Shown: one piece after another, positions 111 to 12,370 of the stretch | Layout of the letters: each line of letters opens with the position of its first letter | Position numbering within the stretch: the first letter of the stretch is position 1 | DNA from: a phage | Strand: one strand, 5' to 3' | Length of the DNA stretch: 64,000 bases | Assembly: GCA_014686905.1 (NCBI GenBank) | Contig: GCA_014686905.1_4093.1 | Made by a program: the position numbers and the translations under genes | The notes under the pieces: model-generated | What the model was told of the DNA's origin: nothing | Databases searched by the model: none | The model's input: only the letters and a program-made list of their open reading frames with translations

Positions 111-180
111 AAAAAGTACTTGCATGATTAAGAGATTAGCGTATAATGTTTTACATCGAAAGGGGAAACGGTTCTCCTTC
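111..180 (+). promoter_or_regulatory. sigma70-like early promoter plus 5' leader stem-loop
   Basis: A-rich upstream, TTGCAT ~120-125, TATAAT 142-147, imperfect hairpin 161-178. Confidence 0.5.
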
Positions 181-202
181 CAAATCAAAGGAATCAAAAC
201 AA

Positions 203-429
203 TGGCTATTATCATTACTCGCGTATCTGGTACTACTGGCAATTCTTCTACTGTTGCAGTCATTACTAACAAGGCAGGTGCGGAATTGCAAAATGCAATG
301 AATACCTGGGCCGTTAATGAGTTCGGTCAGTGGGCAAGTGTAGCATACATTGAAACCTATCAAGTGCCGACCATTAGTTTAACGGATCTTGGTGTGGAAC
401 GTATCCTTTGCTTGGATGAATTAAATTAA
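203..429 (+). CDS. hypothetical small early protein (75 aa)
   Basis: ATG 203 after promoter and leader; in-frame with track ORF 97..429. Confidence 0.6.
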
Positions 430-430
430 A

Positions 431-496
431 AAAGTACTTGCAAAGTAAATCGAATAAAGTATAATACATTACATCAAGGGGAGAAATGATTCTCCC
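431..496 (+). promoter_or_regulatory. sigma70-like early promoter plus 5' leader stem-loop
   Basis: TTGCAA 438-443, 16-bp spacer, TATAAT 460-465; hairpin GGGGAGAA/TTCTCCCC 477-496. Confidence 0.6.
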
Positions 497-514
497 CACT
501 ACAAGGAAACTAAT

Positions 515-658
515 ATGAAAACTTGTCAATGTGGTAAAAAATCTATTACTGGTTTAAAGCGGGGCGTTGCTCTTTGCCAGTACCATTATAATTTACAAGT
601 ATGGGGTAAAGAATGGGCCGACCAGGTGGAAGCAATTAAGAAAGCAAAAAGTAAGTAA
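515..658 (+). CDS. small Cys-rich protein (47 aa)
   Basis: RBS AAGGAA then ATG 515; MKTCQCGKK...; below track size cut-off. Confidence 0.45.
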   Translation: MKTCQCGKKSITGLKRGVALCQYHYNLQVWGKEWADQVEAIKKAKSK

Positions 659-664
659 AAATAT

Positions 665-706
665 TATCACAGTACTATTGACATAGTTTGATAGTACTGG
701 CATAAT
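665..706 (+). promoter_or_regulatory. sigma70-like promoter
   Basis: TTGACA 678-683, 17-bp spacer, CATAAT 701-706. Confidence 0.55.
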
Positions 707-747
707 AGATTTTATCAAGACAACATATTAATTTAAGGAATACTAAA

Positions 748-1071
748 ATGGCTAAAACTATCATTAACACCGTTTCCCTGGCTGCAATCCGTGCAATCAA
801 TGTTGACGGTAAACGTTGGACTGATTCATATGGCAATACTTATCATTCTTGTCATGTAAGCGTCGAACTGGATAACGGTTTGAATGTTCTGGCGGTTGAA
901 TCATTTACTTATGGCTATGAAGATGCATATCAACAAACGGCGTTAGATCTATTAAAGGAATCAGTAGACGGGCTTAATACTGATGAAACCTCCCTTACTC
1001 GTTTGTGCAATGATCTTAATATCCCGTTGCATTGTACTGTACAGAATGTTAAACGCAAAAAAGATCTTTAA
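748..1071 (+). CDS. hypothetical protein; paralog of 7149..7472
   Basis: RBS AAGGAA; shares RWTDS-GNTYHSC...FTYGY block with 7149..7472. Confidence 0.65.
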   Translation: MAKTIINTVSLAAIRAINVDGKRWTDSYGNTYHSCHVSVELDNGLNVLAVESFTYGYEDAYQQTALDLLKESVDGLNTDETSLTRLCNDLNIPLHCTVQNVKRKKDL

Positions 1072-1151
1072 TTAGCTTTACTTTATGCAGATACTTTGAT
1101 ATAGTGTCTGCATAGGGGAAAGAAATTAAATTAACTTAAGAGGATCGTATA

Positions 1152-1421
1152 ATGAAAAATATCAGTACTTTAATCGATGCAGGTACACATGTTCGGCGGT
1201 CTATGGTTGCAACCAGTACTACAAAACAAGTAGCGAGCGGTTATCTTGTATTTGTGCACGATGGTAAACTCCTGGAACGTTCAATCAATTTTGATGTTAA
1301 AAACAATTGCCGTTTTATTATCTTTAAGCGTGAACAATATAAAATTGATTTACCAGCAAAGCCCATTAGCGGGGCGTACAACGTGCAATCATTGTTTGAG
1401 CGTCAACCTTACACCTATTAA
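1152..1421 (+). CDS. hypothetical protein (89 aa)
   Basis: RBS AAGAGGA upstream of ATG 1152. Confidence 0.55.
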   Translation: MKNISTLIDAGTHVRRSMVATSTTKQVASGYLVFVHDGKLLERSINFDVKNNCRFIIFKREQYKIDLPAKPISGAYNVQSLFERQPYTY

Positions 1422-1472
1422 TCAAAACATCGTTAGCGGTCGATTTAGGCCGCTTGTATTGGGGATTATACC

Positions 1473-1643
1473 ATGAACGTTAATCAAGTACTGAATGAGA
1501 TCGAAAGCATCATTAAACCAATGAAACGCATTGATGCTATGTTAACACCGGAAGAATGCCGCCTTTATGAGCGTTACAGTGTGGAACAAGCCCAGGAAAT
1601 GGCCCGTATCCGTCCGGTTGCCAGTACTGATAAGGCGGCGTAA
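1473..1643 (+). CDS. hypothetical small protein (56 aa)
   Basis: ORF below track cut-off; stop overlaps next start. Confidence 0.35.
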   Translation: MNVNQVLNEIESIIKPMKRIDAMLTPEECRLYERYSVEQAQEMARIRPVASTDKAA

Positions 1644-1644
1644 T

Positions 1645-1854
1645 ATGCTTACTGTACAGGATAAGATCGACATCTTAAAGGTTAATATGTATGTGATTGA
1701 TGCCGTACCTGGTAAAGTATTTGCATACGATGATTCTAATCGCAGTCCGTTTTATTGCAGTCATGTAGTTGGATACGTGCCGTTGGCGTATGTTATAGAA
1801 AGAGTGGTTGATGCAGCATACAAACATTTTTTAGAAAATAATACTTGCAATTAG
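1645..1854 (+). CDS. hypothetical protein (69 aa)
   Basis: internal ATG of track ORF 1567..1854, directly after stop of 1473..1643. Confidence 0.45.
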   Translation: MLTVQDKIDILKVNMYVIDAVPGKVFAYDDSNRSPFYCSHVVGYVPLAYVIERVVDAAYKHFLENNTCN

Positions 1855-1903
1855 TTTTCAGTACTGTATAATGATTTACATCGAGAGCGGGAATAGTTCC
1901 CGC
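1841..1903 (+). promoter_or_regulatory. sigma70-like early promoter plus 5' leader stem-loop
   Basis: TTGCAA 1845-1850, 16-bp spacer, TG-n-TATAAT 1867-1872; hairpin GCGGGAA/TTCCCGC 1887-1903. Confidence 0.6.
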
Positions 1904-1924
1904 CTCACTTTTAAGGAATATGAA

Positions 1925-2071
1925 ATGAAAGCATCAAAAAAGAGTAATACTAAGAAAGCATGTTCACCTTTCGCTGGGGTATTCCCTTTACGTTTCGTTG
2001 ATGAAGTGGTTTCCTACCCGCCTGGCCTTACTCCTGAGATGGTAGAAAGTTTGCGTAAATCTAAAAAATAG
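1925..2071 (+). CDS. hypothetical small protein (48 aa)
   Basis: RBS AAGGAA 1913-1918, ATG 1925. Confidence 0.5.
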   Translation: MKASKKSNTKKACSPFAGVFPLRFVDEVVSYPPGLTPEMVESLRKSKK

Positions 2072-2134
2072 TACTTGCAATTAGTTTTTAAACGCGTATA
2101 ATGTTTTACATGAAGGGGAGAAATGATTCTCCCC
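2066..2134 (+). promoter_or_regulatory. sigma70-like early promoter plus 5' leader stem-loop
   Basis: TTGCAA 2075-2080, TATAAT 2097-2102; hairpin GGGGAGAA/TTCTCCCC 2115-2134. Confidence 0.6.
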
Positions 2135-2152
2135 AATAACAGGAGAAACAAA

Positions 2153-2305
2153 ATGAAACAATATAATGCTCGGTTTGATGTTACTATCGGTAACGGCAAA
2201 GGTCAATTCTCTTTCAGTACTCGCAAAAGTTATACAGAAAACTTCCTGCGTAATTGTGCACTGACCGCCGCTCAAATTAAACATTATTTTCAGGCTAAAA
2301 AATGA
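2153..2305 (+). CDS. hypothetical small protein (50 aa)
   Basis: RBS AGGAGA, ATG 2153 (internal Met of track ORF 2123..2305). Confidence 0.5.
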   Translation: MKQYNARFDVTIGNGKGQFSFSTRKSYTENFLRNCALTAAQIKHYFQAKK

Positions 2306-2391
2306 AATCATTTGCTTACTATAGTTCTGCGGTGATCGGTGCATTGATCGCGGCGTTGTTAGTAACCTATCTATTCTTTATGGTGATTTAA
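2302..2391 (+). CDS. putative hydrophobic micro-protein (29 aa)
   Basis: ATGA overlap with upstream stop; MKSFAYYSSAVIGALIAALLVTYLFFMVI looks like one TM helix. Confidence 0.3.
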   Translation: MKSFAYYSSAVIGALIAALLVTYLFFMVI

Positions 2392-2535
2392 ATGAATCCA
2401 ACAGGCTTAAATTATAAAAGTTGTTCGGCGTTTACGAAAGCAAATAAAGCGAATGCACGTAAAGCGAAAGTACAGGAGTACATCAAGCAAGGCATGACGC
2501 GAAAGGCGGCGATTCTAAAAGCTAAAAATAAATGA
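2392..2535 (+). CDS. putative basic micro-protein (47 aa)
   Basis: ATG immediately after previous stop; Lys/Ala-rich. Confidence 0.3.
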   Translation: MNPTGLNYKSCSAFTKANKANARKAKVQEYIKQGMTRKAAILKAKNK

Positions 2536-2640
2536 AAAAAGTGGTTGACTCCGGTCAGCCATTTTGCTATTATATATTCATTGAGAGATAGCTCACTAGC
2601 CCACAGGGTGCATAAGTGTATCTATTATATAAGTATTGAG
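2536..2640 (+). repeat. REP-A intergenic element copy 1 (terminator-like hairpin plus conserved box)
   Basis: hairpin TGGTTGAC-TCCG-GTCAGCCA then T-run; conserved GCCCACAGGGTGCATAAGTGTATCTATT. Confidence 0.6.
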
Positions 2641-2654
2641 TACTGAAAACTATT

Positions 2655-2725
2655 TTTAAAAAGTACTTGCAAACTATCTCAATAAGCGTATAATGTTTTA
2701 CATCGAAAGGGGAAACGGTTTCCCC
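2655..2725 (+). promoter_or_regulatory. sigma70-like early promoter plus 5' leader stem-loop
   Basis: TTGCAA 2667-2672, TATAAT 2689-2694; hairpin GGGGAAAC/GTTTCCCC 2709-2725. Confidence 0.6.
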
Positions 2726-2745
2726 TGGTAATAAGGAAACAAATC

Positions 2746-3087
2746 ATGACTATCTCAATTGCTCAATCTAACTTTGAAAATGAAATCATCGCCCAGGCAC
2801 TGCGTTTAAATGATGGTCGGGCCGAAATTAATTACGGTTTCAATTCAGGCGGTTGCGAAAACTATCAGTACTTTGTAACGGCTGATGGCGGTGTCCTGGG
2901 TATCAATACAGTTATTGTAAACATCCAAAAAATTAATTTCAATGATCCAGACGATAGCCAGTTTTACATCACTGGCGTAGACGTGAACTATGAGGATGAC
3001 TCACTAACTGATGATCACACTGGCGAGCGGTTAGAAAGTGCATACGGTGAAGATGATTATCAGTCCGGTCCAGAAGATTTCGAATAA
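2746..3087 (+). CDS. hypothetical acidic protein (113 aa)
   Basis: RBS AAGGAAAC, ATG 2746. Confidence 0.65.
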   Translation: MTISIAQSNFENEIIAQALRLNDGRAEINYGFNSGGCENYQYFVTADGGVLGINTVIVNIQKINFNDPDDSQFYITGVDVNYEDDSLTDDHTGERLESAYGEDDYQSGPEDFE

Positions 3088-3090
3088 TAT

Positions 3091-3160
3091 AAAAAATAGT
3101 TTGACAATAGATTATAGTACTGTATAATAGTTTACATCAAGGGGAGAAAAACTTCTCCCC
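3091..3160 (+). promoter_or_regulatory. sigma70-like early promoter plus 5' leader stem-loop
   Basis: TTGACA 3101-3106, TG-n-TATAAT 3123-3128; hairpin GGGGAGAA/TTCTCCCC 3141-3160. Confidence 0.65.
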
Positions 3161-3182
3161 ACTAACAGAGAGAGAAAACAAA

Positions 3183-3395
3183 ATGGCTAATATCCGGTCG
3201 AAATTAAAAAATGCAAAACAAGTTTTATTTTCAGATCATGAATACTTTAATAAAGATATTACAGGAGTTACAAGTATCAAGGAAGTAAAAGAAAAAACCG
3301 GCGTTTTGTGTGATGTGCGATTAGTTGGAACATTTGGGAATAACGTGCTATATCGCTGCGGTGATTACAATTTTACACTGACTATCATTAACTAA
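3183..3395 (+). CDS. hypothetical protein (70 aa)
   Basis: RBS AGAGAGAGAAAA, ATG 3183. Confidence 0.6.
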   Translation: MANIRSKLKNAKQVLFSDHEYFNKDITGVTSIKEVKEKTGVLCDVRLVGTFGNNVLYRCGDYNFTLTIIN

Positions 3396-3399
3396 AAAT

Positions 3400-3443
3400 A
3401 TTATCACAGTACTATTGACATAGTTTGATAGTACTGACATAAT
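3400..3443 (+). promoter_or_regulatory. sigma70-like promoter
   Basis: TTGACA 3415-3420, 17-bp spacer, CATAAT 3438-3443; near-duplicate of promoter at 665-706. Confidence 0.55.
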
Positions 3444-3478
3444 AACTTTTATCAACTACACTACTAAGGAATTAAAAA

Positions 3479-3658
3479 ATGGCTATCATCGCAAAAACTG
3501 AAATCGTTGGTCTGGATTCTATCATCATGACGTTTGAAGATCAAAAAGGTATGTATGTAGTTTCCTATGGTGATTATGTTCGGGAGTATGAAACGGTAGA
3601 CGAAGCCTTTGAAAGTTATATTCGCCAGGTGAATAAAGCATACGATGACTACCGCTAA
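3479..3658 (+). CDS. hypothetical small protein (59 aa)
   Basis: RBS AAGGAA, ATG 3479; below track cut-off. Confidence 0.5.
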   Translation: MAIIAKTEIVGLDSIIMTFEDQKGMYVVSYGDYVREYETVDEAFESYIRQVNKAYDDYR

Positions 3659-3669
3659 AATATATTACC

Positions 3670-3713
3670 AGTACTATTAAATCTATTGACAACGTTTGAT
3701 AGTACTGTATAAT
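3670..3713 (+). promoter_or_regulatory. sigma70-like promoter
   Basis: TTGACA 3686-3691, TG-n-TATAAT 3708-3713. Confidence 0.55.
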
Positions 3714-3757
3714 AAGTTTTATAAACAGTAGTTAACTTAACCTAAGAGAGAAACAAA

Positions 3758-3901
3758 ATGATCGCACTGGATTCATTCATCGACGCAGTACTGGCAAAAA
3801 CTGGCGAGGATCTGACCGCAGAACAATACGCGATGATCGAGCAATGTCAGCAAAACGGTAAATCGGTGAAAGATACTGTTAAGATTATCCGCAAGATGTA
3901 A
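3758..3901 (+). CDS. hypothetical small protein (47 aa)
   Basis: RBS AGAGAGAAA, ATG 3758; followed by hairpin. Confidence 0.45.
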   Translation: MIALDSFIDAVLAKTGEDLTAEQYAMIEQCQQNGKSVKDTVKIIRKM

Positions 3902-3907
3902 TATTAT

Positions 3908-3935
3908 AGCCCACTGGTTAACGCTGGTGGGCTTT
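3908..3935 (+). terminator. putative intrinsic terminator
   Basis: hairpin AGCCCAC...GTGGGCT then TTTAAT; weak U-tract. Confidence 0.4.
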
Positions 3936-4006
3936 AATCATTTACCCTATACAATGCCAGTACTAAACCGTTTATCTCATTAGAATGCGTTACAGGACGT
4001 TTAACA

Positions 4007-4204
4007 ATGATTAGCATGAAATCAGTACAAAAACAAATAGAAACATTATCAAAAATTAAACGTAAACAATACTCCTTAGAATATACAATCAATGGTAACT
4101 ATCATCTAATGAAAGAAAATAATTTTATAGTCATTGATGAATCATTGCAAATCATTAGTATAGTACTGAAAGCATTAATCAATGACAGAAAAAAATTAAA
4201 ATAA
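4007..4204 (+). CDS. hypothetical Lys-rich protein (65 aa)
   Basis: track ORF; weak RBS. Confidence 0.4.
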   Translation: MISMKSVQKQIETLSKIKRKQYSLEYTINGNYHLMKENNFIVIDESLQIISIVLKALINDRKKLK

Positions 4205-4294
4205 TTGTTGACATACAATGCCAGTACTGGCATAATACTTACATCAAGACGAGAACGTCACCAACCCATAGGGTGCACAAATGTAACTATATAA

Positions 4295-4370
4295 TATCGA
4301 TCAATAAATGATCAAAAAAGTACTGGATCAATTTAGCATAAGGCGTATAATTCTGATCAATTCTTGATCA
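4295..4370 (+). promoter_or_regulatory. cluster of five GATC sites (TGATCAA-type repeats) in a long non-coding leader
   Basis: GATC at 4299, 4310, 4326, 4355, 4366 inside the ~330-bp non-coding stretch 4205-4532. Confidence 0.35.
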
Positions 4371-4532
4371 AAGGCAATAAACGTAGTTGAAATTATATAG
4401 AAAGTACAAAGGCGTTACCATTCGTGGTAATGCTGGGGAATATGTAGTATCATACGGTTTGAATAAAATCAGTACTAGTAGTATAATCGTAGCATTGCAG
4501 TACTATAGTATTTTTATAATGAGGTTAAAATA

Positions 4533-4790
4533 ATGGCTGTAGGATTTGCGAAGGACGGGGCCGAACAAGACGAGATTAACGCAGTGATTCAGGCCGCCGT
4601 AAACCACGCTAGAAAGCAAATTAACGCACAAATAGAATCACTGGTACATTGCCTCGACTGCGGCGATATAATCCCTGAGAAACGACGCCAGGCCGTTAAG
4701 GGATGTAAGTACTGCATAACTTGCCAGGAGGATCATGATAGTACTTTTAAACGTCCCCCGCGTAATTGTTGGCATAGATCTATGAGATAA
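4533..4790 (+). CDS. TraR/DksA-family C4 zinc-finger protein
   Basis: CLDC-x17-CITC (CxxC-x17-CxxC) spacing typical of TraR/DksA; RBS GAGG. Confidence 0.6.
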   Translation: MAVGFAKDGAEQDEINAVIQAAVNHARKQINAQIESLVHCLDCGDIIPEKRRQAVKGCKYCITCQEDHDSTFKRPPRNCWHRSMR

Positions 4791-4825
4791 AAAGTATTGA
4801 CAGTACTGAAAGATAGTGTATAATA
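4791..4825 (+). promoter_or_regulatory. sigma70-like promoter
   Basis: TTGACA 4798-4803, 16-bp spacer, TG-n-TATAAT 4820-4825. Confidence 0.6.
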
Positions 4826-4853
4826 TTTTATATCTTAACTGAGGATTGAAATC

Positions 4854-5210
4854 ATGGGAATACAACATATCACGCGTACTACTGACAATGGCGAGATCAC
4901 TGGCTATCAAGTACAGGGCAAAGTAGCACAATTGCAGTACTGGTTTGTTAAACGTGGAATCATTGCACCGGATCTTGATTATGACCGTGTAGCGTTTATT
5001 GATTCTCTTTATGTTGATCCTGATAGTCGGGGCAATGGTGAAGGTAACGAATTAATGAATGCCTTTATTGATGCCGCCGATGATTCAGATTGTATCATTT
5101 TAGAATGCGATACAGGAGAAGATAACGCCTTCAATCTTAAAGAATGGTACGAAGGTTTCGGATTCGAGGTACTGATCGATAGTGAATATCCTATCATGAT
5201 TTTATCATAG
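4854..5210 (+). CDS. putative GNAT-like acetyltransferase (118 aa)
   Basis: RGNGEGNELMNAFIDAA resembles GNAT motif A; RBS GAGGA. Confidence 0.45.
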   Translation: MGIQHITRTTDNGEITGYQVQGKVAQLQYWFVKRGIIAPDLDYDRVAFIDSLYVDPDSRGNGEGNELMNAFIDAADDSDCIILECDTGEDNAFNLKEWYEGFGFEVLIDSEYPIMILS

Positions 5211-5216
5211 TACTTG

Positions 5217-5280
5217 CATTTAGTTTTCAGTACTGTTATAGTACTTACATCAAGGGGAAACATCTTCCCCTACTAAGAGG
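5217..5280 (+). promoter_or_regulatory. early promoter plus 5' leader stem-loop
   Basis: TTGCAT 5224-5229, weak -10 TTATAG; hairpin AGGGGAA/TTCCCCT 5262-5280. Confidence 0.5.
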
Positions 5281-5288
5281 AAATAAAA

Positions 5289-5477
5289 ATGGAAAACTTA
5301 TCAAGTATTTTAGTACAAGATGATTTCGGTAATCCTGGAAGTGCTATCATTGTTCGGGGTAATAAAGCAACGTTTGTTATTGCTGGTGGACCTGTACAGC
5401 GTAGCATTAAAAATAATGCTGTTACCATTAATAATGTACGCTATCGCTTAGATAAAGAATTGATTCATAAACTTTAA
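5289..5477 (+). CDS. hypothetical protein (62 aa)
   Basis: RBS AAGAGGAAA, ATG 5289. Confidence 0.6.
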   Translation: MENLSSILVQDDFGNPGSAIIVRGNKATFVIAGGPVQRSIKNNAVTINNVRYRLDKELIHKL

Positions 5478-5544
5478 AAAGTATTTGACAATAGATTATA
5501 GTACTGTATAATAAGTTACATGAAGGGGTGAAATGATTCTCCCC
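5476..5544 (+). promoter_or_regulatory. sigma70-like early promoter plus 5' leader stem-loop
   Basis: TTGACA 5485-5490, TG-n-TATAAT 5507-5512; hairpin 5525-5544. Confidence 0.6.
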
Positions 5545-5561
5545 ACTAAGAGGAAAGAAAA

Positions 5562-5774
5562 ATGCAAGGTCAACTAATCGTTCGTAAATGGTCTGATACT
5601 AACGAAAAACCGTGGGATGTACAATACATCGGACCGGATGGGGTATCACGTTATCAGCCTGGCGTAACGCATAGTACTGAGCAATTCGCAAACGCTCACC
5701 GCGAACGCCTGTTAGAATCCATGAAACAGGGATTCTGTGAAAAATTCATTCAAGATCATTGGCTGAAAGATTAA
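5562..5774 (+). CDS. hypothetical protein (70 aa)
   Basis: RBS AAGAGGAAAG, ATG 5562. Confidence 0.6.
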   Translation: MQGQLIVRKWSDTNEKPWDVQYIGPDGVSRYQPGVTHSTEQFANAHRERLLESMKQGFCEKFIQDHWLKD

Positions 5775-5791
5775 TATAAGGAGTACAGCTT

Positions 5792-5884
5792 ATGCAAATG
5801 AATCCGATGATTATTGTTTTAGCTGTACTTATGATCATTCATGCAATAGTAGAAGTATTAACGCAATCAGGAGTAATAAAATGA
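5792..5884 (+). CDS. putative hydrophobic micro-protein (30 aa)
   Basis: RBS AAGGAG, ATG 5792; MQMNPMIIVLAVLMIIHAIVEVL looks like one TM helix. Confidence 0.3.
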   Translation: MQMNPMIIVLAVLMIIHAIVEVLTQSGVIK

Positions 5885-6054
5885 TTCAAGTAGAATTATC
5901 AGTACTGAAAGATCTGTTTTATCGGTTAGGTACTACTGGCGAGTATCCTAAAAGTGATACCGCAAAACTTTTTGTATCACTCGACTTATGGCAACGCGAA
6001 CAATTAGTAATGTCCTGGCGTAAAGGTAAAGCAGATAGCGAGGTGAAAGCATGA
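5881..6054 (+). CDS. hypothetical small protein (57 aa)
   Basis: ATGA overlap with previous stop; RBS AGGAG. Confidence 0.4.
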   Translation: MIQVELSVLKDLFYRLGTTGEYPKSDTAKLFVSLDLWQREQLVMSWRKGKADSEVKA

Positions 6055-6300: not shown

Positions 6301-6330
6301 CTGGTGGCTAGTACTGAAAACTATTTTTAA

Positions 6331-6366
6331 AAAAGTACTTGCATTGTACTTAGAATCAAGTATAAT
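6331..6366 (+). promoter_or_regulatory. sigma70-like promoter upstream of ORF-free structured leader
   Basis: TTGCAT 6339-6344, 16-bp spacer, TATAAT 6361-6366; downstream hairpin ACGGGG...CCCCGT 6380-6405. Confidence 0.5.
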
Positions 6367-6447
6367 GTTTTACATCAGGACGGGGAACGAAACAAGTAAC
6401 CCCGTTAAGTAGTCCAGGAGTAAGACATAAGAAAACCTCCCCTGATA

Positions 6448-6482
6448 AAATAGTTTGACAATAGAAAGTAAACGAGTATAAT
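6448..6482 (+). promoter_or_regulatory. sigma70-like promoter
   Basis: TTGACA 6455-6460, TATAAT 6477-6482. Confidence 0.55.
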
Positions 6483-6515
6483 ACTTACATCAACCACTGA
6501 TAAGGAAACATTAAA

Positions 6516-6791
6516 ATGCGGATTCTACTGACAGCTAACGAAATCGAACAAGTACTGACTACTAACCTGGAAGACTGGAAACGTGAAGCAGATATCCAGG
6601 CGGTTCAACGGCTTAACGATGAGTTAACGCCGGATGACTTAAGCAAGATTGTAGATCCTCAATTCTACGAAGATATCCACGACACCGCGTTAAGCGTCGA
6701 GGATGTACTAGATAAGCACTACATTGATATTGATTTGCAGGTTTACGGTCGTAAAAACTTTATCACTATTCACGACATTTACAATAATTAA
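6516..6791 (+). CDS. hypothetical acidic protein (91 aa)
   Basis: RBS AAGGAAAC, ATG 6516. Confidence 0.65.
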   Translation: MRILLTANEIEQVLTTNLEDWKREADIQAVQRLNDELTPDDLSKIVDPQFYEDIHDTALSVEDVLDKHYIDIDLQVYGRKNFITIHDIYNN

Positions 6792-6855
6792 GTATTGACA
6801 AAGTATCTTAGTACTGTATAATAGTTTACATCGAGAGGGGGAATGGTTCCCCTCC
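6789..6855 (+). promoter_or_regulatory. sigma70-like early promoter plus 5' leader stem-loop
   Basis: TTGACA 6795-6800, TG-n-TATAAT 6817-6822; hairpin GAGGGGGAA/TTCCCCTC 6835-6855. Confidence 0.65.
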
Positions 6856-6877
6856 TAACAAAGAGAGAGAAATAAAA

Positions 6878-7060
6878 ATGGCTAAATGCACTATCTGTAA
6901 GAAAGAAATCGTATTAGTTCCAAGTGCCCGTGAACGTGCCGCTCGGTTCGGTGGCAAACCGTCAGACTATACAAAAATGTTTACTGTCCATGCAGCTTGC
7001 CAGGTAGCAAAACGTTCACAAGAAAGCGTAGAATTAATGCGTAAACTTTCCAAAAAATAA
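6878..7060 (+). CDS. hypothetical protein with CxxC pair (60 aa)
   Basis: RBS AGAGAGAGAAA, ATG 6878; CTICKK...HAAC. Confidence 0.55.
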   Translation: MAKCTICKKEIVLVPSARERAARFGGKPSDYTKMFTVHAACQVAKRSQESVELMRKLSKK

Positions 7061-7126
7061 GTATTGACAAAGTATCTTAGTACTGTATAATAGTTTACAT
7101 CAAGTGAGGGGAAACGGTTCCCCTCC
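7060..7126 (+). promoter_or_regulatory. sigma70-like early promoter plus 5' leader stem-loop
   Basis: TTGACA 7064-7069, TG-n-TATAAT 7086-7091; hairpin GAGGGGAAAC/GTTCCCCTC 7106-7126. Confidence 0.65.
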
Positions 7127-7148
7127 TAACAAAGAGAGAGAAATAAAA

Positions 7149-7472
7149 ATGGCTATGATCCTTGCCCAGAAAGTAGAACTGAAAATTGTAACCTCCTTTG
7201 ACATTAAAGTTAATCGGTGGACTGATTCACACGGCAATACTTACCACTCTTGCTACGTGTCTGCGTTAATTGGTGATCGTTGGGAAGACCTGGGACATGA
7301 AACCTTTACATACGGTTACGGCACACAAGGCGAATACACGGGCTTGGAGATCATTAAAGAAACCGTTATAGGTTTCAACCCGAAAGAAAAAGTTATTCAC
7401 CGCATCGAAAAAGAGATTAACAAAGAAATAACAGTTCGATACAACGATGTAAAACGTAAGAAAGACATGTAA
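7149..7472 (+). CDS. hypothetical protein; paralog of 748..1071
   Basis: ATG 7149 after RBS; shares RWTDSHGNTYHSC...FTYGYG block. Confidence 0.65.
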   Translation: MAMILAQKVELKIVTSFDIKVNRWTDSHGNTYHSCYVSALIGDRWEDLGHETFTYGYGTQGEYTGLEIIKETVIGFNPKEKVIHRIEKEINKEITVRYNDVKRKKDM

Positions 7473-7495
7473 TAGAATCCATTTAAAGTACTATT

Positions 7496-7534
7496 TGACA
7501 TTGCCCAGATAGTACTTTATAATAGACTCTAACT
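7496..7534 (+). promoter_or_regulatory. sigma70-like promoter
   Basis: TTGACA 7506-7511, 17-bp spacer, TATAAT 7529-7534. Confidence 0.55.
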
Positions 7535-7567
7535 TGTAGTACTAACTCAACTAATAGGATGTATACC

Positions 7568-7963
7568 ATGATTACTAAATTCTACGCTACCCGTGAAGCT
7601 GCCCGTATTGTTGCACGCGAGGAAGGAGCAGCATTTAAAGACATGGGCAAAGATGCACCGAAAGGTCAACGCTGGGCCGTACAGTTCAAAGAAATCTCTG
7701 ATATCGTGAATTCACCGGAGCCAGTACTAACAGCAGCAGAACTAAAACGAGCGGATTTACTGGCGGCAGTACTTAACGCACAAGATGAATTTATCGCTGA
7801 TTCTGATATCAAAGTACAGACAAACCATACCGCTTGGACTCACGCGGATCACCTGGCAAACCTTAAGCGTCCAAGTGAACTGGTACGCAACCAGAAAGAG
7901 ATCCGACACGACCGTAAGGGTAATCGTGTAACAGTATACAGTAAACGCCGCCAGGTTATCTAA
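7568..7963 (+). CDS. hypothetical protein (131 aa)
   Basis: RBS AGGA then ATG 7568 (alternative start 7559). Confidence 0.6.
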   Translation: MITKFYATREAARIVAREEGAAFKDMGKDAPKGQRWAVQFKEISDIVNSPEPVLTAAELKRADLLAAVLNAQDEFIADSDIKVQTNHTAWTHADHLANLKRPSELVRNQKEIRHDRKGNRVTVYSKRRQVI

Positions 7964-7985
7964 TAACTTGCAGTACTAACAACAC

Positions 7986-8010
7986 GGCGGGATCAGTTCC
8001 CGCCTTTTTT
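7986..8010 (+). terminator. rho-independent terminator
   Basis: hairpin GGCGGGA-TCAG-TTCCCGCC followed by TTTTTT. Confidence 0.75.
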
Positions 8011-8025
8011 ATAGGATAAACTAAA

Positions 8026-8280
8026 ATGATTAAGGTACAACTATCTAAAGATAATATCTTGCGGGTACACTATAAAGCACCACAGAGAATCATCACAAAG
8101 GCCGTACAGCTTGCTAATGAGTTTATTAATGGTAACCTATTACCAAGGAAGTTAAGCAACGGAAAACTGCGTGTAATCGATGTAGACACTAACAACAGAA
8201 TAGTAATAGAGAACACAGGAAAGATAAACCTTTATGAACATCAACAATATAATAAGAAAATAAAACTAATATCACGTTGA
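8026..8280 (+). CDS. hypothetical basic protein (84 aa)
   Basis: RBS AGGA, ATG 8026. Confidence 0.55.
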   Translation: MIKVQLSKDNILRVHYKAPQRIITKAVQLANEFINGNLLPRKLSNGKLRVIDVDTNNRIVIENTGKINLYEHQQYNKKIKLISR

Positions 8281-8333
8281 CAGTACTCAATTGTTTTAGT
8301 ATTATGTACACATACCAACACGGGAGAAACAAA

Positions 8334-8552
8334 ATGAAATTATCTAAAATCGAAAAGAAAACTATTGATGAAGCAGTTAAGCACGGTTATACCTTTCGTA
8401 ATGATTCACATTTTACCAATTTTCAACAAGGCCAAAGGACTATTAAAAAACTAATTGACAAAGGTTTATTAGTTAAAGTAGATAACGGTAACGGCATTGA
8501 GTATCAGCCAACCCAAGACGCATTATCTTTAAAGAAATATGCAATTATCTAA
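8334..8552 (+). CDS. hypothetical protein (72 aa)
   Basis: ATG 8334 after duplicated promoter/RBS block 8277-8333. Confidence 0.5.
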   Translation: MKLSKIEKKTIDEAVKHGYTFRNDSHFTNFQQGQRTIKKLIDKGLLVKVDNGNGIEYQPTQDALSLKKYAII

Positions 8553-8609
8553 TTGACAGTACTCAAATGTTTTAGTACTATATGTACATACCAACACGGG
8601 GGAAACAAA

Positions 8610-8852
8610 ATGATTACTTTAGAAAAACGTATCAAAGAAACTACATCGCTGGTGGAACTGTTAACAGTACTGAAATGTAAAACAACACCATTCAGCACGC
8701 CGGACTTTATTAATATGGTTGATGTTAATGGTCGCTATCGTATCACGGTCGAACAAGGAGCGGCGAAAGTATTCAGTACTAAAAACACTAAGGAAGTGAT
8801 CCACGCCGTTAATGTTAAAAAAGTAGTTGCAATTGATAGTAAAGTACTGTAA
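8610..8852 (+). CDS. hypothetical protein (80 aa)
   Basis: ATG 8610 after duplicated promoter/RBS block 8553-8609. Confidence 0.5.
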   Translation: MITLEKRIKETTSLVELLTVLKCKTTPFSTPDFINMVDVNGRYRITVEQGAAKVFSTKNTKEVIHAVNVKKVVAIDSKVL

Positions 8853-8883
8853 TATAGTTTCATTAACTCAAGGAGAACATGCA

Positions 8884-9468
8884 ATGCGTAATTATACTAA
8901 ATTCATCCGTACCCTGTCAGAAATGGAAACTAACAAAGAGATCCTTTCAGCTTGTCGGTTAGCTGGACTGGAGATCATCGGGGCGGGATCTTCCCGTATA
9001 GTTTTCGCTTTAAATGATCGGTTAGTGATTAAGGTCGCCAATTGTGATGCGGGTGTAGAACAAAATGAAACTGAATGTAAGGTATGGAATTTTTTAGACT
9101 ATGACCGCCCTCAATTGAAACAGTACTTTGCTAAAGTGCATATGCATTTAAGCGATCCTGATAATATGTTTATCGTTATGGATCGGTTGAGTACTGCAAG
9201 CAAAGGCAGTGTAAAGCACGTTAACGCGTGCAACGAATTAAAGTACAATATTAAACGTAATGCAATTGAACGCCAGCACCGCTTTGCTGATGCACTACAA
9301 CACGTTGATGATACACTGTCAACACTAACGATAAGAGATATCAGAAAACAGAATATCGGCCAGGATCGCAACGGCCTTATTAAAGTACTTGATTACGGTT
9401 TAACCCGCAATATCTGGAATCAGTACTATAAAAAGCGGGATGTAAAAGCCGTAACTATAACACGATAA
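8884..9468 (+). CDS. minimal protein-kinase-like protein (194 aa)
   Basis: Gly-rich loop GAGSSRIVF, VIKVA lysine, catalytic-loop-like RDIRKQN, DFG-like LDYG with kinase-like spacing; RBS AGGAGA. Confidence 0.55.
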   Translation: MRNYTKFIRTLSEMETNKEILSACRLAGLEIIGAGSSRIVFALNDRLVIKVANCDAGVEQNETECKVWNFLDYDRPQLKQYFAKVHMHLSDPDNMFIVMDRLSTASKGSVKHVNACNELKYNIKRNAIERQHRFADALQHVDDTLSTLTIRDIRKQNIGQDRNGLIKVLDYGLTRNIWNQYYKKRDVKAVTITR

Positions 9469-9477
9469 AAAAGATTA

Positions 9478-9575
9478 AAAAAGGGATTGACTTCGGTCAG
9501 TCCCTTTGCTATTATATATTCATTGAGAGATAGCTCACTGACCCACAGGGTGCATAAATGTATCTATTATATAAG
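9478..9575 (+). repeat. REP-A intergenic element copy 3
   Basis: hairpin GGGATTGAC-TTCG-GTCAGTCCC 9483-9504 then T-run; conserved box CCCACAGGGTGCATAAATGTATCTATT. Confidence 0.6.
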
Positions 9576-9600
9576 TATTCAGTACTGAAAACTATTTTTA

Positions 9601-9671
9601 AAAAAGTACTTGCATTGTACTTAGAATCAAGTATAATGTTTTATATCGAGAGGGGGAAATGGTTCTCCCTC
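9601..9671 (+). promoter_or_regulatory. sigma70-like early promoter plus 5' leader stem-loop
   Basis: TTGCAT 9610-9615, TATAAT 9632-9637; hairpin 9648-9671. Confidence 0.6.
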
Positions 9672-9691
9672 AAAGAATAAGGAATAAAATC

Positions 9692-9913
9692 ATGACTACA
9701 ATGACTTGCATTTACGCTTCCAATCTTCTGAATGATGCGGCCTTTAATGTTGATTCAGAATATCAATGTTATCGGGATGAAAATAAAAAAGTTTTTGTAG
9801 TTGATAATAATGGTTTCCATATTGAATTACAATCCGGTTTCACTGGTGTTGATGGTAAATCAGTATGGGGCGTACAGGATGATAACGGTACATATCATTT
9901 TAAACGTAATTAA
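9692..9913 (+). CDS. hypothetical protein (73 aa)
   Basis: RBS AAGGAATAAA, ATG 9692 (internal Met of track ORF 9659..9913). Confidence 0.55.
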   Translation: MTTMTCIYASNLLNDAAFNVDSEYQCYRDENKKVFVVDNNGFHIELQSGFTGVDGKSVWGVQDDNGTYHFKRN

Positions 9914-9975
9914 GTATTGACAAAGTATCTTAGTACTGTATAATAGTTTACATCAAGGGGAGAATAGTTCTCCCC
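9911..9975 (+). promoter_or_regulatory. sigma70-like early promoter plus 5' leader stem-loop
   Basis: TTGACA 9917-9922, TG-n-TATAAT 9939-9944; hairpin GGGGAGAA/TTCTCCCC 9957-9975. Confidence 0.65.
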
Positions 9976-9997
9976 GATACTAAAAGGAAACAAAATT

Positions 9998-10270
9998 ATG
10001 TCCAGCTACTCCGCTACTATGATCATTAAAGATATGAACGGTAATCCTACTTCTGCTGGTGGATCATTTGGAAACATTAATTTAGATGGTCGGTTATCCA
10101 TGCAATCAGCCATCGATGCAGCGAAAGAAGTTTTTAAGAATGAATGTACTGTTAGTAAGCTGGATTATATGGGATTCGCTATCGAGAAAACTAATCGTTT
10201 TGTGAACTACAAAAATCCACTGATGATTGATACTAACCTGAAAGCTAACGAAGTGGGGTACTTATTATGA
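9998..10270 (+). CDS. hypothetical protein (90 aa)
   Basis: RBS AAAGGAAAC, ATG 9998. Confidence 0.6.
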   Translation: MSSYSATMIIKDMNGNPTSAGGSFGNINLDGRLSMQSAIDAAKEVFKNECTVSKLDYMGFAIEKTNRFVNYKNPLMIDTNLKANEVGYLL

Positions 10271-10458
10271 CAGTAGAAGAAGTTAAAAAAGTACTGGCAG
10301 TACTACGCTATCATAATCATTGCAAGGTGAAGAATGATCCTGATTATGTTGATTCATCCCTGGAGGAAGACACATTAAACGCAATAAGCCATATGCAAAC
10401 ATTAGCAAAGCGTATGACCGAAAAGAATAGACCGGACTATATCGGAAATAAAATTTAA
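10267..10458 (+). CDS. hypothetical protein (63 aa)
   Basis: ATGA overlap with upstream stop. Confidence 0.5.
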   Translation: MTVEEVKKVLAVLRYHNHCKVKNDPDYVDSSLEEDTLNAISHMQTLAKRMTEKNRPDYIGNKI

Positions 10459-10526
10459 AAAGTACTTGCATTGTAGTTAGATTAACGTATAATGTTTTAC
10501 ATAGAGCGGGGGAATAGTTCTCCCGC
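10456..10526 (+). promoter_or_regulatory. sigma70-like early promoter plus 5' leader stem-loop
   Basis: TTGCAT 10466-10471, TATAAT 10488-10493; hairpin GCGGGGGAA/TTCTCCCGC 10506-10526. Confidence 0.6.
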
Positions 10527-10544
10527 CAGTCCAGGAGATACACC

Positions 10545-10808
10545 ATGAACACTATCGAAATCACTATCAATGCACACGTATACGACAACGTAGTACTGCA
10601 AACTACTATGACCGCTAATGATACCAGTACTTTGCGGAATACTGTTATTAGTGCCGTATGTGCCGCTATCGGTGATGTCGCCCTGGAAAATGCAGAACAC
10701 ATCAACGACGGTTTCACTATGTGCAAACGTGATAACGCAAAACATATCATCGTAGAAGGTTACGGCGGTGTAGAATATAATCTTTATATGAAAAAAGTAC
10801 TTGCATAA
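10545..10808 (+). CDS. hypothetical protein (87 aa)
   Basis: RBS AGGAGA, ATG 10545. Confidence 0.55.
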   Translation: MNTIEITINAHVYDNVVLQTTMTANDTSTLRNTVISAVCAAIGDVALENAEHINDGFTMCKRDNAKHIIVEGYGGVEYNLYMKKVLA

Positions 10809-10857
10809 TAACTAAAACAAAGTATAATGTTTTGCATAGGGGGAGATATCCTCCCCC
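10791..10857 (+). promoter_or_regulatory. sigma70-like early promoter plus 5' leader stem-loop
   Basis: TTGCAT 10801-10806, TATAAT 10823-10828; hairpin GGGGGAG/CTCCCCC 10838-10857. Confidence 0.6.
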
Positions 10858-10875
10858 ACTAAAAGGAGTAATAAA

Positions 10876-11100
10876 ATGGCTAACTTTGATGAACTGATGC
10901 GGGAAGTAGCTAACCTGGCAGAAGAGAAAAAATCATTCGATTCTATCTATAACACCGCTCACCGTGATTCAGTACTGGCATGTACTCAGGATCAAAAAGA
11001 TGAACTAATCGCCACATATCATGAAGCATGGAAGTACTACCGCCAATGGGAGAAAGAAGAAAGCGAGTCTACCATCAACGGCATCAATAATCTAATCTAA
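10876..11100 (+). CDS. hypothetical protein (74 aa)
   Basis: RBS AAAGGAG, ATG 10876. Confidence 0.6.
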   Translation: MANFDELMREVANLAEEKKSFDSIYNTAHRDSVLACTQDQKDELIATYHEAWKYYRQWEKEESESTINGINNLI

Positions 11101-11176
11101 AAGTTTTATTTCAGTACTATTGACATAGCTTGATAGTACTGATGTAATAACTTTACTAACTACAAGGGGAAACATA

Positions 11177-11434
11177 ATGGAACAGTTCACACAATATCGG
11201 GTAAATCCTCAAGCTATGGCCTACGTAGAAGACCATAAAACGTTACCAGTACTAACACCAATTAAAGGCCATATCTATCGTGCAATGTCATGGAATACGG
11301 CCCAGGATGGATATACTACCGCTGGCGTGGGTATGTATTGCGGGAATGGTGAATGGTTTGATCCAAATAATCCGGTAGCCATTGACAGTACTGAAAAAAT
11401 GAAATGGGCCGACTACATCGAAGATATTTCATAA
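11177..11434 (+). CDS. hypothetical protein (85 aa)
   Basis: promoter TTGACA...TGTAAT upstream; RBS AGGGGAAA. Confidence 0.6.
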   Translation: MEQFTQYRVNPQAMAYVEDHKTLPVLTPIKGHIYRAMSWNTAQDGYTTAGVGMYCGNGEWFDPNNPVAIDSTEKMKWADYIEDIS

Positions 11435-11501
11435 AACTATTTGACAGTACTAACCAGTAATGTATAATGTTTTACATAGAGCGGGGGAATAGTTCTCCCG
11501 C
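11435..11501 (+). promoter_or_regulatory. sigma70-like early promoter plus 5' leader stem-loop
   Basis: TTGACA 11441-11446, TG-n-TATAAT 11463-11468; hairpin 11480-11501. Confidence 0.6.
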
Positions 11502-11523
11502 CAATAGTTTGGAGTAAAACATT

Positions 11524-11724
11524 ATGTCTATCGCTATCGCCCTGGTTGAAGTACTGAAAGAAGCTAAAGCCAACCTTATCGATGTACAGATTAAGGAATT
11601 GCAAAATGGTTTAATCGGCTGTACTTGTACCGCTGGTGGAGCGGCAGACTATCGGGAATTCGAATCACTTGAATCGATGGTCCGTTATCTTACCATGATC
11701 GTAGAAGATTGGAGAATCATCTAA
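11524..11724 (+). CDS. hypothetical protein (66 aa)
   Basis: RBS GGAG, ATG 11524. Confidence 0.55.
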   Translation: MSIAIALVEVLKEAKANLIDVQIKELQNGLIGCTCTAGGAADYREFESLESMVRYLTMIVEDWRII

Positions 11725-11737
11725 CAAAAAAGAATAA

Positions 11738-11830
11738 AAAAAGGGATTGACTCCGGTCAGTCCCTTTGCTATTATATACGCATAGACAAAAACTAGCCCA
11801 CTGGGTGCAGGAGTGTATCTAAAATATATA
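11738..11830 (+). repeat. REP-A intergenic element copy 4
   Basis: hairpin GGGATTGAC-TCCG-GTCAGTCCC 11743-11764 then T-run; diverged box GCCCACTGGGTGCAGGAGTGTATCTA. Confidence 0.55.
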
Positions 11831-11969
11831 GTTAATAACGGTGAGTAACTATCTGCTGGTGGGGTGAAAACTATTAATAAAAAAGTATTGACAAAGTATA
11901 TCAGTACTGCAATAATGTATCTCGTAGGGCGGCAATGGTGCGACGGCCCACAAAGTTAGGAGATTCAAA

Positions 11970-12302
11970 ATGAGTACTTCAATCGCTATCGTTAAAGCTT
12001 TCATCCGTACCAATGTTTCATCTGTATTCATCGACGGTCTGGATCGGGAAGTAGAATACTCAATCATTATCGCACAGACTGCAAACGGTGCTCGGTATAT
12101 CCTTAATGATAGTGAAGCAAATCACTACTACTTCACTAAAGCCACTGGCTTTAAACGCATCGATGCTGATGTAGTATACGCTAAGATGAATAAGCTGGTA
12201 GACAAGATTAACGCGAAAGGTACTATCGATTTACAGTACTGGAACGAAACCTATCCAGAATATGGATCTCACCGTTACCTGAATCCAGGTATTAAAATGT
12301 AA
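11970..12302 (+). CDS. hypothetical protein (110 aa)
   Basis: promoter TTGACA...GCAATAAT upstream; RBS AGGAGA. Confidence 0.6.
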   Translation: MSTSIAIVKAFIRTNVSSVFIDGLDREVEYSIIIAQTANGARYILNDSEANHYYFTKATGFKRIDADVVYAKMNKLVDKINAKGTIDLQYWNETYPEYGSHRYLNPGIKM

Positions 12303-12370
12303 AAAGTACTTGCATAGTACTTAGAATCAAGTATAATGTTTTACATAGAGAGGGGGAAATGGTTCTCCCT
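12301..12370 (+). promoter_or_regulatory. sigma70-like early promoter plus 5' leader stem-loop
   Basis: TTGCAT 12309-12314, TATAAT 12331-12336; hairpin 12347-12370. Confidence 0.6.

Follow-up and report, generated by a model that had tools for sequence, protein, structure and literature searches.

A family of stem-loops standing shortly behind early promoters was analysed in a 64,000-nucleotide stretch of phage DNA (contig GCA_014686905.1_4093.1; the whole stretch is called the window here). The hairpin is very probably a transcribed RNA structural element of the leader, carried by a recurring unit of promoter, hairpin and Shine-Dalgarno sequence (SD) in front of small early genes. Taken as a whole, this unit is regarded, with somewhat better than even confidence, as a self-contained early expression cassette in which the leader hairpin would be an RNA-selected, 5'-proximal stabiliser and insulator. 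Positions 1-12500 of the window share 94-97% identity with jumbo coliphages of the 121Q/PBECO4/G17/Turkey3 type, 348-386 kb in size (megablast against GenBank phages), and by this identity the window is assigned to the early region of a 121Q/PBECO4-type jumbo coliphage. The early region, positions 1-13000, holds dozens of small + strand open reading frames (ORFs), which are nearly always annotated as "hypothetical protein" in relatives. The intergenic gaps of this region measure ~80-100 bp and contain near-consensus sigma-70 promoters.

Both strands were scanned for hairpins (stem of at least 7 bp, loop of 3-8 nt, dG <= -9), in combination with a motif scan for a -10 hexamer and T(T/G)(A/G)CAT. 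Seventeen promoter-hairpin units were obtained between 120 and 12371, all on the + strand, namely 16 canonical units and one variant with a long loop. The TTTACATCRA motif was itself enriched, with 41 matches at no more than one mismatch compared with 23.1 +/- 4.5 in shuffles. An earlier, sequence-only reading of the window had counted at least 15 early promoters followed by a hairpin and had quoted five stems, all of which are present: GGGGAGAA/TTCTCCCC at 478, 2115, 3141 and 9957, GCGGGAA/TTCCCGC at 1887, GGGGGAG/CTCCCCC at 10839, GGGGAAAC/GTTTCCCC at 2708, and GAGGGGGAA/TTCCCCTC at 6835, the real pairing of the last being 8 bp with one G.U included. The placement of the hairpin behind the -10 and a conserved block was likewise recovered; the distance, given there as about 8-12 nt, measures 10-14 nt in the window with the block inside this interval. 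The units are as follows, with z values referring to dinucleotide shuffles and bit scores to the covariance model.

Cassette 1, 120..179, + strand: -35 TTGCAT at 120-125, -10 TATAAT at 142-147, block TTTACATCGA at 150-159; hairpin AAGGGGAA-ACGG-TTCTCCTT at 160-179, + strand, with one G.U; ATG at 202; 46.3 bits.
Cassette 2, 438..497, + strand: -35 TTGCAA at 438, -10 at 460-465, hairpin GGGGAGAA-ATGA-TTCTCCCC at 478-497; z -3.66.
Cassette 3, 1845..1907, + strand: -35 at 1845, -10 at 1867-1872, hairpin GCGGGAA-TAG-TTCCCGC at 1887-1903; z -4.23; helix extended by GAG/CTC to 1883-1907; identical hairpin in phi92.
Cassette 4, 2075..2134, + strand: -35 at 2075, -10 at 2097-2102, hairpin GGGGAGAA-ATGA-TTCTCCCC at 2115-2134.
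Cassette 5, 2667..2726, + strand: -35 at 2667, -10 at 2689-2694, hairpin AGGGGAAA-CGG-TTTCCCCT at 2708-2726.
Cassette 6, 3101..3160, + strand: -35 TTGACA at 3101, -10 at 3123-3128, hairpin GGGGAGAA-AAAC-TTCTCCCC at 3141-3160; z -4.35.
Cassette 7, 5214..5271, + strand: -35 TTGCAT at 5214, -10 TATAGT at 5237-5242, hairpin AGGGGAA-ACATC-TTCCCCT at 5253-5271.
Cassette 8, 5485..5544, + strand: -35 at 5485, -10 at 5507-5512, hairpin GGGGTGAA-ATGA-TTCTCCCC at 5525-5544 with a T.T mismatch.
Variant 9, 6339..6406, + strand: -35 at 6339, -10 at 6361-6366, hairpin GACGGGG-N14-CCCCGTT at 6379-6406 with a 14-nt loop; z -2.56.
Cassette 10, 6795..6854, + strand: -35 at 6795, -10 at 6817-6822, hairpin GAGGGGGA-ATGG-TTCCCCTC at 6835-6854 with one G.U; 47.4 bits.
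Cassette 11, 7064..7125, + strand: -35 at 7064, -10 at 7086-7091, hairpin GAGGGGAA-ACGG-TTCCCCTC at 7106-7125.
Cassette 12, 9610..9671, + strand: -10 at 9632-9637, hairpin GAGGGGGAA-ATGG-TTCTCCCTC at 9650-9671 with one G.U.
Cassette 13, 9917..9975, + strand: -35 at 9917, -10 at 9939-9944, hairpin GGGGAGAA-TAG-TTCTCCCC at 9957-9975.
Cassette 14, 10466..10526, + strand: -10 at 10488-10493, hairpin GCGGGGGAA-TAG-TTCTCCCGC at 10506-10526 with one G.U.
Cassette 15, 10801..10857, + strand: -10 at 10823-10828, block TTTGCATA, hairpin GGGGGAG-ATATC-CTCCCCC at 10839-10857.
Cassette 16, 11441..11501, + strand: -35 at 11441, -10 at 11463-11468, hairpin GCGGGGGAA-TAG-TTCTCCCGC at 11481-11501.
Cassette 17, 12310..12371, + strand: -10 at 12332-12337, hairpin GAGGGGGAA-ATGG-TTCTCCCTC at 12350-12371; 47.2 bits.
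Decayed eighteenth copy, 11888..11951, + strand: promoter TTGACA-17-AATAAT, then GGGCGGCAATGGTGCGACGGCCC; z +0.60, folding no better than shuffles.

The 121Q orthologue of the decayed copy at 11888 reads GGGCGGCA-ATAG-TGCAGCCC. Behind the hairpin of variant 9, ~50 nt without an ORF extend to the next promoter at 6455, and the interval 6339-6454 may give rise to a short early RNA without coding function or be what is left of a deleted gene.

The elements of a cassette succeed one another as an A-rich tract, a -35 (TTGACA or TTGCAA/T), a spacer of 16-17 nt that often contains AGTACT, and TATAAT, followed by 3 nt, TT(A/G)CAT(C/A)(G/A)(A), the hairpin, an A-rich spacer such as ACTAA, the SD and ATG. 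The tract 5' of the window promoters is AAAAAGTA. Stems are 7-10 bp long and begin 10-14 nt past the -10 hexamer in the window copies; in 52 unique cassettes from all sources this distance is 10 or 12 nt (range 8-15), the end of the stem is separated from ATG by 17-22 nt, and purines make up 94% of the 5' arm and 6% of the 3' arm. The SD is positioned 8-14 nt past the stem. In E. coli, transcription usually begins at a purine that follows a pyrimidine, 7-8 nt past the -10 hexamer. By this rule, the probable start site for host RNA polymerase is the A of the conserved CAT, the eighth nucleotide after the hexamer. With the +1 predicted there, the leader is ~45 nt long and 3-7 nt (mean 4.75) are unpaired at the 5' end, or 1 nt in cassette 17, the helix of which can be extended by UAG/CUA to within 1 nt of the predicted +1. 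As for the earlier statement that the structure lies at the very start of the mRNA, its position is indeed locked to the promoter, and the start site itself is a prediction. When whole leaders were folded by partition function, the hairpin was retained and the SD was for the most part open, its mean P(unpaired) being 0.70. Alternate pairing of the C/U-rich 3' arm with the SD, as a switch, was rejected, since in most copies the hairpin stays closed and the SD open in both minimum free energy (MFE) and partition-function folds; TTCTCC of cassette 4 is exactly complementary to its SD, GGAGAA.

Regarding folding strength, the 38 nt past the promoter display a mean MFE of -13.1 kcal/mol, compared with -3.5 for all 38-nt windows, and 16 of the 17 copies reach -9.5 kcal/mol or lower, compared with 2.8% of the background. 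A plain MAFFT alignment submitted to RNAalifold (A1) yielded no more than 4 pairs owing to the variable loop length of 3 to 6 nt, and it was replaced by a seed of 14 copies with 4-nt loops (A2) and a covariance model of 8 bp, R1. Run with filters off on both strands of the full 64 kb, R1 returned 16 matches, every one of them on the + strand and within 150-12376; the sole additional signal was a weak - strand echo that overlaps a copy. Variant 9, with its 14-nt loop, was missed. No match to the window was found in Rfam at gathering thresholds on either strand.

The covariation set consisted of the R1 matches in the window and in 13 related loci, 74 copies in total and 68 of them distinct. Among the distinct sequences, standard pairs occupy 95.2% of the cells, compared with 79.7 +/- 0.8 when the partners were shuffled, and changes on both sides were found at 8 of 8 model pairs. 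Double-change cells numbered 76 against 16.5 in shuffles, while the covariation score was 0.488 against 0.198, a level reached by 0 of 500 shuffles; when the 3' partners were slid by 1-3 columns as a control, the score did not exceed 0.144. This covariance-model alignment of all copies had been suggested by the sequence-only reading, whose view that the stems differ yet remain complementary, with the RNA structure under selection, is strengthened by the copies of other phages. Its description as compensatory covariation is accurate in that pairing is kept, but requires amendment: the copies are parts of a recombining promoter cassette, so that part of the covariation reflects cassette exchange and not stepwise compensatory mutation.

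The identity of the selected strand is reflected in the imperfect pairs. The non-Watson-Crick cells comprise 35 G.U, 0 U.G and 7 A.C, several of the A.C being alignment-edge artefacts, and detection neutral to mismatch type gave 9 G.T compared with 1-2 A.C in true cassettes. In G.U-bearing copies the + RNA folds better by 2.5-4.3 kcal/mol. Because G.T on this strand is A.C on the other, it is in the + strand transcript that pairing is kept. Selection acts on the structure of the RNA and not on its sequence, the + strand RNA being the selected form. Stems are diverse across phages (GGGGAGAA, GCGGGAA, GGGCGGCA, GGGAATGAA, GGGGATAC, GGGTAAGC, GACAGGAGA and GGAGATTCCA), and this diversity, together with the covariation, places structure above sequence as in known 5' stabilisers, which demonstrates selected pairing and not a mechanism. 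Comparison with the 121Q orthologues, identified by the same downstream gene, revealed one change from A-U to G.U, loops replaced above an unchanged stem, and a hairpin with a 2-nt insertion in both arms beside a coding sequence differing at 1 of 48 positions. A recent disruptive change was also observed, the T.T in the window at 5525-5544 corresponding to A-T in 121Q.

The same architecture was observed in other phages, in which related copies were sought by inspecting regions upstream of genes. The 43-bp core of cassette 3 has matches of 93-95% in phi92-like phages (Justusliebigvirus), which are unrelated to the jumbo phages, and phi92 hairpins include GGCGGGAA-ATGG-TTTCCCGCC, GGGCGGCA-ATAG-TGCCGCTC and GGCGGTGG-AATAG-CCCACCGCC. 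Salmonella jumbo phage Munch carries, for example, GGGGGAA-ACATC-TTCCCCC and GAGAGGGGAA-ATGG-TTCTTCTCTC, the latter with two G.U, and the rV5-like phage W70 displays the same architecture with different stems. From 121Q and IMG/VR jumbo contigs come hairpins such as GGGGATAC-ATAGT-GTATCCCT, GGGAATGAA-TGA-TTCATTCCC, GGGTAAGC-AATACC-GCTTACCC and GACAGGAGA-TAG-TCTCTTGTC, and over all sources 48 different hairpin sequences were gathered. Scans of IMG/VR with promoter and block patterns returned mostly chance matches in AT-rich contigs, and only contigs with several matches were assigned to the family. As a control, 10 of 123 IMG/VR sites matching TATAATNNNTTACATCRA had a hairpin of -8 kcal/mol or lower behind them, six in family-assigned contigs (L035, L043, L049) and four in L041, L044, L083 and L099, which indicates that the block alone does not create hairpins. 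The promoter-hairpin-SD module is shared by large enterobacterial myoviruses of at least four groups, namely Asteriusvirus-type jumbo phages, Munch, Stephanstirmvirinae and Vequintavirinae. Searches of the literature on 121Q-, CBB-, rV5- and phi92-type phages turned up no previous account of hairpins placed behind promoters, and in the genome papers of CBB and rV5 mention is limited to sigma-70-like promoters and terminators.

Furthermore, the cassettes lie at the boundaries of gene insertions and deletions. The window ORFs 1925-2071 and 6879-7059 each have two flanking cassettes, those on either side of the latter (cassettes 10 and 11) being near-duplicates, whereas 121Q lacks both ORFs and has one chimeric cassette at each site. 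Homologous recombination between cassette copies would insert and delete small ORFan genes in this way, and the module is shared among unrelated large coliphages. Judged from these junctions, the whole cassette behaves as a mobile regulatory module, as do the promoter-early stem-loops (PeSLs) of the T4-like phages RB49/phi1, T4/PST and KVP40/nt-1 (Arbiol et al. 2010, PMC2839356; Comeau et al. 2014, PMC4122927). PeSLs consist of a repeated strong early promoter and a G(n)-loop-C(n) stem-loop among ORFans and mediate modular shuffling; their stem-loop precedes the promoter, sits between -35 and -10 or covers the -10, and has been demonstrated to stop transcription arriving from upstream (PMC2839356, PMC4122927). 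The window cassettes resemble them as repeats of ~90-100 bp with an A/T-rich tract, a near-consensus sigma-70 early promoter, SD and ATG, in the stable G-run/loop/C-run stem-loop inside the repeated unit, and in their location among small ORFan early genes at ORF-indel boundaries between close relatives. They differ in that the stem-loop stands 10-14 nt downstream of the -10, without a U-tract and in the promoter's own transcript, so that one defining feature of PeSLs is lacking, and in that the phages carrying leader hairpins are not T4-like.

A second repeated unit was noted in the window at 2538-2640, 6212-6310, 9480-9580 and 11740-11830, with a variant at 4208-4290. It comprises a hairpin of 12 bp, AAAGGGATTGACTCCGGTCAGTCCCTTT, flanked by A- and T-runs and resembling a bidirectional terminator; a -35, TTGACT, lies inside the hairpin and is followed by TGcTATTATAT (an extended -10). 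The next ~45 nt are conserved, free of ORFs and contain CCCACAGGGTGCATAAATGTATCTAT, and a hairpin cassette follows ~60 nt later. The box CCCACAGGGTGC is also present behind TTGACT/TATTAT promoters in Munch (L122, at 561, 9377, 14969, 18314 and 19880). By its layout the second unit fits the original PeSLs and coexists with the hairpin cassettes; it also fits the "promoter-coupled terminators" of a 2026 preprint (10.64898/2026.08.19.745784). Its conserved box, for which no match was found in Rfam, could be a small RNA or a protein site.

With respect to function, analogy with known leaders gives roughly an even chance that the hairpin acts as a stabiliser and insulator; of the options named by the sequence-only reading (stabilisation, a processing site, binding of a regulator), stabilisation is the best supported, by analogy. 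In this mechanism the first ~25-30 nt of the mRNA would fold into a stem-loop of -8 to -16 kcal/mol, separated from the 5' end by 1-7 nt and from the start codon behind it by ~20 nt, which would hinder 5'-end-dependent decay by limiting the access or scanning of RppH and RNase E/G. With the first part of the leader locked in a local helix, the SD would stay open whatever ORF lies downstream, and such insulation would suit a cassette that moves from gene to gene. The near-pure purine 5' arm may additionally favour promoter escape, as work on the initial transcribed sequence of T5 N25 reportedly indicates.

One of the closest functional analogues is the T7 phi10 leader, which folds into an 8-bp hairpin, GGGAGACC-ACAAC-GGUUUCCC, at +1, followed by an A/U-rich spacer and SD. 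When transplanted, the T7g10 stem-loop raised expression 1.5-3-fold and also the mRNA level (PMC6146998). Shared features are the 8-bp hairpin with a purine-rich 5' arm and a pyrimidine-rich 3' arm including a G.U pair, and the A/U-rich spacer with a strong SD in a leader of ~60 nt in T7 and ~45 nt here. However, the T7 hairpin stands exactly at the +1 of a T7 RNA polymerase late promoter, whereas here a host sigma-70 early promoter is used and 1-7 nt are predicted before the stem, and sequence homology is absent beyond composition. Base pairing at the 5' terminus is a classical protection against RNase E-dependent decay, according to the portion of PMC3997798 that draws on its references 92-95, and the 5' stem-loop stabilisers of ompA and papA (Emory 1992; Bouvet & Belasco 1992; Bricker & Belasco 1999, as cited in PMC3997798) form the precedent. 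The stem-loops of ompA hp1 and papA are short, stable and placed at the extreme 5' end of the mRNA, and they counter RNase E-dependent decay by structure and not by sequence, in which the window hairpins would resemble them if the predicted +1 holds; ompA hp1 and papA differ as single-gene elements with mapped 5' ends and measured half-lives, compared with a multi-copy family with predicted 5' ends here. Infection by T4 accelerates the decay of host mRNA via RNase E/G (PMC3014915), which would supply a rationale for protected phage messages. A bolder version, held to be unlikely, regards the hairpin as a shared "self" mark that would exempt early mRNAs from phage-accelerated host mRNA decay, or its GAA-AURG-UUC apex as being read by a host or phage factor timing translation or destruction, with spread alongside the promoter as a mobile cassette through several unrelated coliphage families.

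A number of observations weigh against a selected 5' stabiliser. Mapped transcription start sites were not found in the literature for 121Q-, CBB-, rV5- or phi92-type phages, and if +1 were the upstream A, the single-stranded 5' segment would be 5-9 nt. In ompA work, full protection is reportedly obtained at ~4 nt or less unpaired, a limit exceeded by 5-9 nt. Approximately 12 further early promoters of the same region have unstructured leaders, implying that the hairpin is not needed for early expression. Measured against dinucleotide shuffles, single copies reach modest z values of -1.0 to -4.35, since a G-run combined with a C-run folds well whatever their order, and the signal is the regularity across copies and not any single copy. 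Moreover, the model that picked and aligned the covariation sequences itself rewards pairing, and recombination links the copies to one another. Finally, the apical GAA-AUGG/AUAG-UUC partly recurs across families, which may reflect sequence-specific recognition in place of pure structure, or simply common descent of the cassettes.

This recurring apex leads to the possibility that the hairpin is the binding site of a trans-acting phage early/middle protein or host protein, with timed shut-off, RegB-like cleavage, RegA-like translational repression or boxB/put-like antitermination as conceivable roles. The apex GAA-A(U/C)(G/A)G-UUC is present in the window, Munch, phi92 and W70, the restriction of the hairpin to a subset of early promoters would suit a regulon, and T4 early mRNAs are shut off post-transcriptionally by RegB at GGAG (PMC3014915), a motif contained in several 5' arms. 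This GGAG is base-paired, however; loops vary widely (ATGG, TAG, AAAC, ACATC, ATATC, AATACC) and are not GNRA-like pentaloops, stems have no shared sequence, no boxA is near any copy, and Rfam offers no match. Unless a host protein were involved, the same factor would be required in four unrelated phage groups, and such binding is considered improbable.

A little less credence is given to a PeSL in the original sense, that is, a terminator or attenuator of upstream read-through within a unit that is mainly a recombination site. It is favoured by the described association of G(n)-loop-C(n) with strong early promoters in ORFan-rich regions (PMC2839356, PMC4122927), by the cassette-bounded indels at two sites relative to 121Q and by the similar stem of the true terminator at 7986-8004. 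Against it, the stem-loop is always downstream of the -10 and carried by the promoter's own transcript, a U-tract-like run is present in only 1 of 17 copies, and homology for recombination is provided by the whole ~90 bp unit, which leaves the pairing, the G.U bias and the fixed start-site distance unexplained. Simple intrinsic termination was ruled out by the lack of U-tracts, the single flagged copy being 1887-1903 with a weak tail, CTCACTTTTA; the real terminators of the region (7986-8004, 6212-6239 and others) were detected separately from the leader hairpins. The terminator at 7986-8004, located after a gene, reads GGCGGGA-TCAG-TTCCCGCC followed by TTTTTT. Its stem is of the leader-hairpin sequence type, suggesting that hairpins of this family may be recruited for either role.

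A doubtful alternative is that the nascent hairpin stabilises a promoter-proximal pause of RNA polymerase ~10-12 nt downstream, at the SD, for ribosome loading and coupling or for sigma release and escape from very strong promoters. The SD at a fixed 8-14 nt past the stem and the purine-rich start region would agree with such a pause, but no pause consensus is evident, none having been looked for, and the proposal, made by inference only, is indistinguishable here from a post-transcriptional role. Very improbable is an element acting as DNA, either as an operator palindrome bound by a dimeric repressor at +5 to +25 or as a cruciform: the inverted repeat does occupy a classical operator position, and other promoters of the region have operator-like palindromes around -35, but the half-sites have no fixed sequence and lie 3 to 6 nt or more apart, the arms are asymmetric (94% and 6% purine) and mismatches are overwhelmingly G.T on the + strand. 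Half-site diversity and the G.T versus A.C asymmetry were taken to rule it out.

Further candidates were dismissed. Like lambda nut boxB and HK022 put, the elements are promoter-proximal RNA hairpins on early phage transcripts, but their stems are 7-10 bp in place of 5 bp, boxA and a GNRA-like pentaloop are lacking, and copies stand before almost every small gene in place of one per operon; a lambda-type nut site was rejected because no boxA (YGCTCTTWA) occurs within 1-13 kb and the loops are AUGG, UAG, AAAC, ACAUC and similar. CRISPR-repeat mimicry and CsrA sites were dropped for wrong arm orientation and base-paired GGA.

Several other features of the window were recorded. The hexamer AGTACT (with CAGTAC and GTACTG) is the most over-represented, with 225 copies compared with ~21 expected from base composition, or one per ~280 bp over the whole window; it is densest at 1-12000 and absent at 24001-28000. 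It lies in promoter spacers and inside ORFs alike, often as CAGTACTG, and numbers 165 in 40 kb of Munch and none in 28 kb of phi92. A modification, restriction-avoidance or DNA-binding motif is conceivable. A third promoter class is located at 670-706, 3407-3443, 7484-7523 and 11111-11148, in which the -35, TTGACA, is central in an inverted repeat of 12-14 bp (CAGTACTAT...ATAGTACTG) and is followed by (C/T)ATAAT, with leaders that have no hairpin; by its form the repeat looks like an operator. At 52404-52436 a C4-TGC-G9 hairpin (TTTCCCCTGCGGGGGGGGG) stands in otherwise AT-rich DNA, and its run of nine G could be prone to slippage. In the relatives, annotations among the ORFans of this early region include a DksA-like zinc-finger protein, a GNAT acetyltransferase and a Ser/Thr protein kinase, which are candidate host-takeover functions; the intervals 4534-4789, 4855-5209 and 8884-9468 were noted for these three as a group.

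Stabiliser hairpins at 5' ends and promoter/stem-loop cassettes are known already; what is new is a stem-loop inside the transcript at a fixed distance from the predicted +1, with family-like covariation and presence in at least four myovirus groups. An RNA motif of 74 copies from four phage groups is thereby added, having no Rfam match at gathering thresholds, and it could help in annotating the early transcription units and leaders of jumbo, phi92-like and rV5-like phages, as well as offering natural compact promoter-leader parts for phage engineering. The PeSL concept is widened beyond T4-like phages, and also to a layout whose stem-loop forms part of the transcript and not of an upstream terminator. 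As a portable stabiliser and insulator, if that is its role, the hairpin would help to explain how dozens of unrelated ORFan genes achieve high, context-independent early expression, and how such genes may be swapped between genomes without re-tuning.

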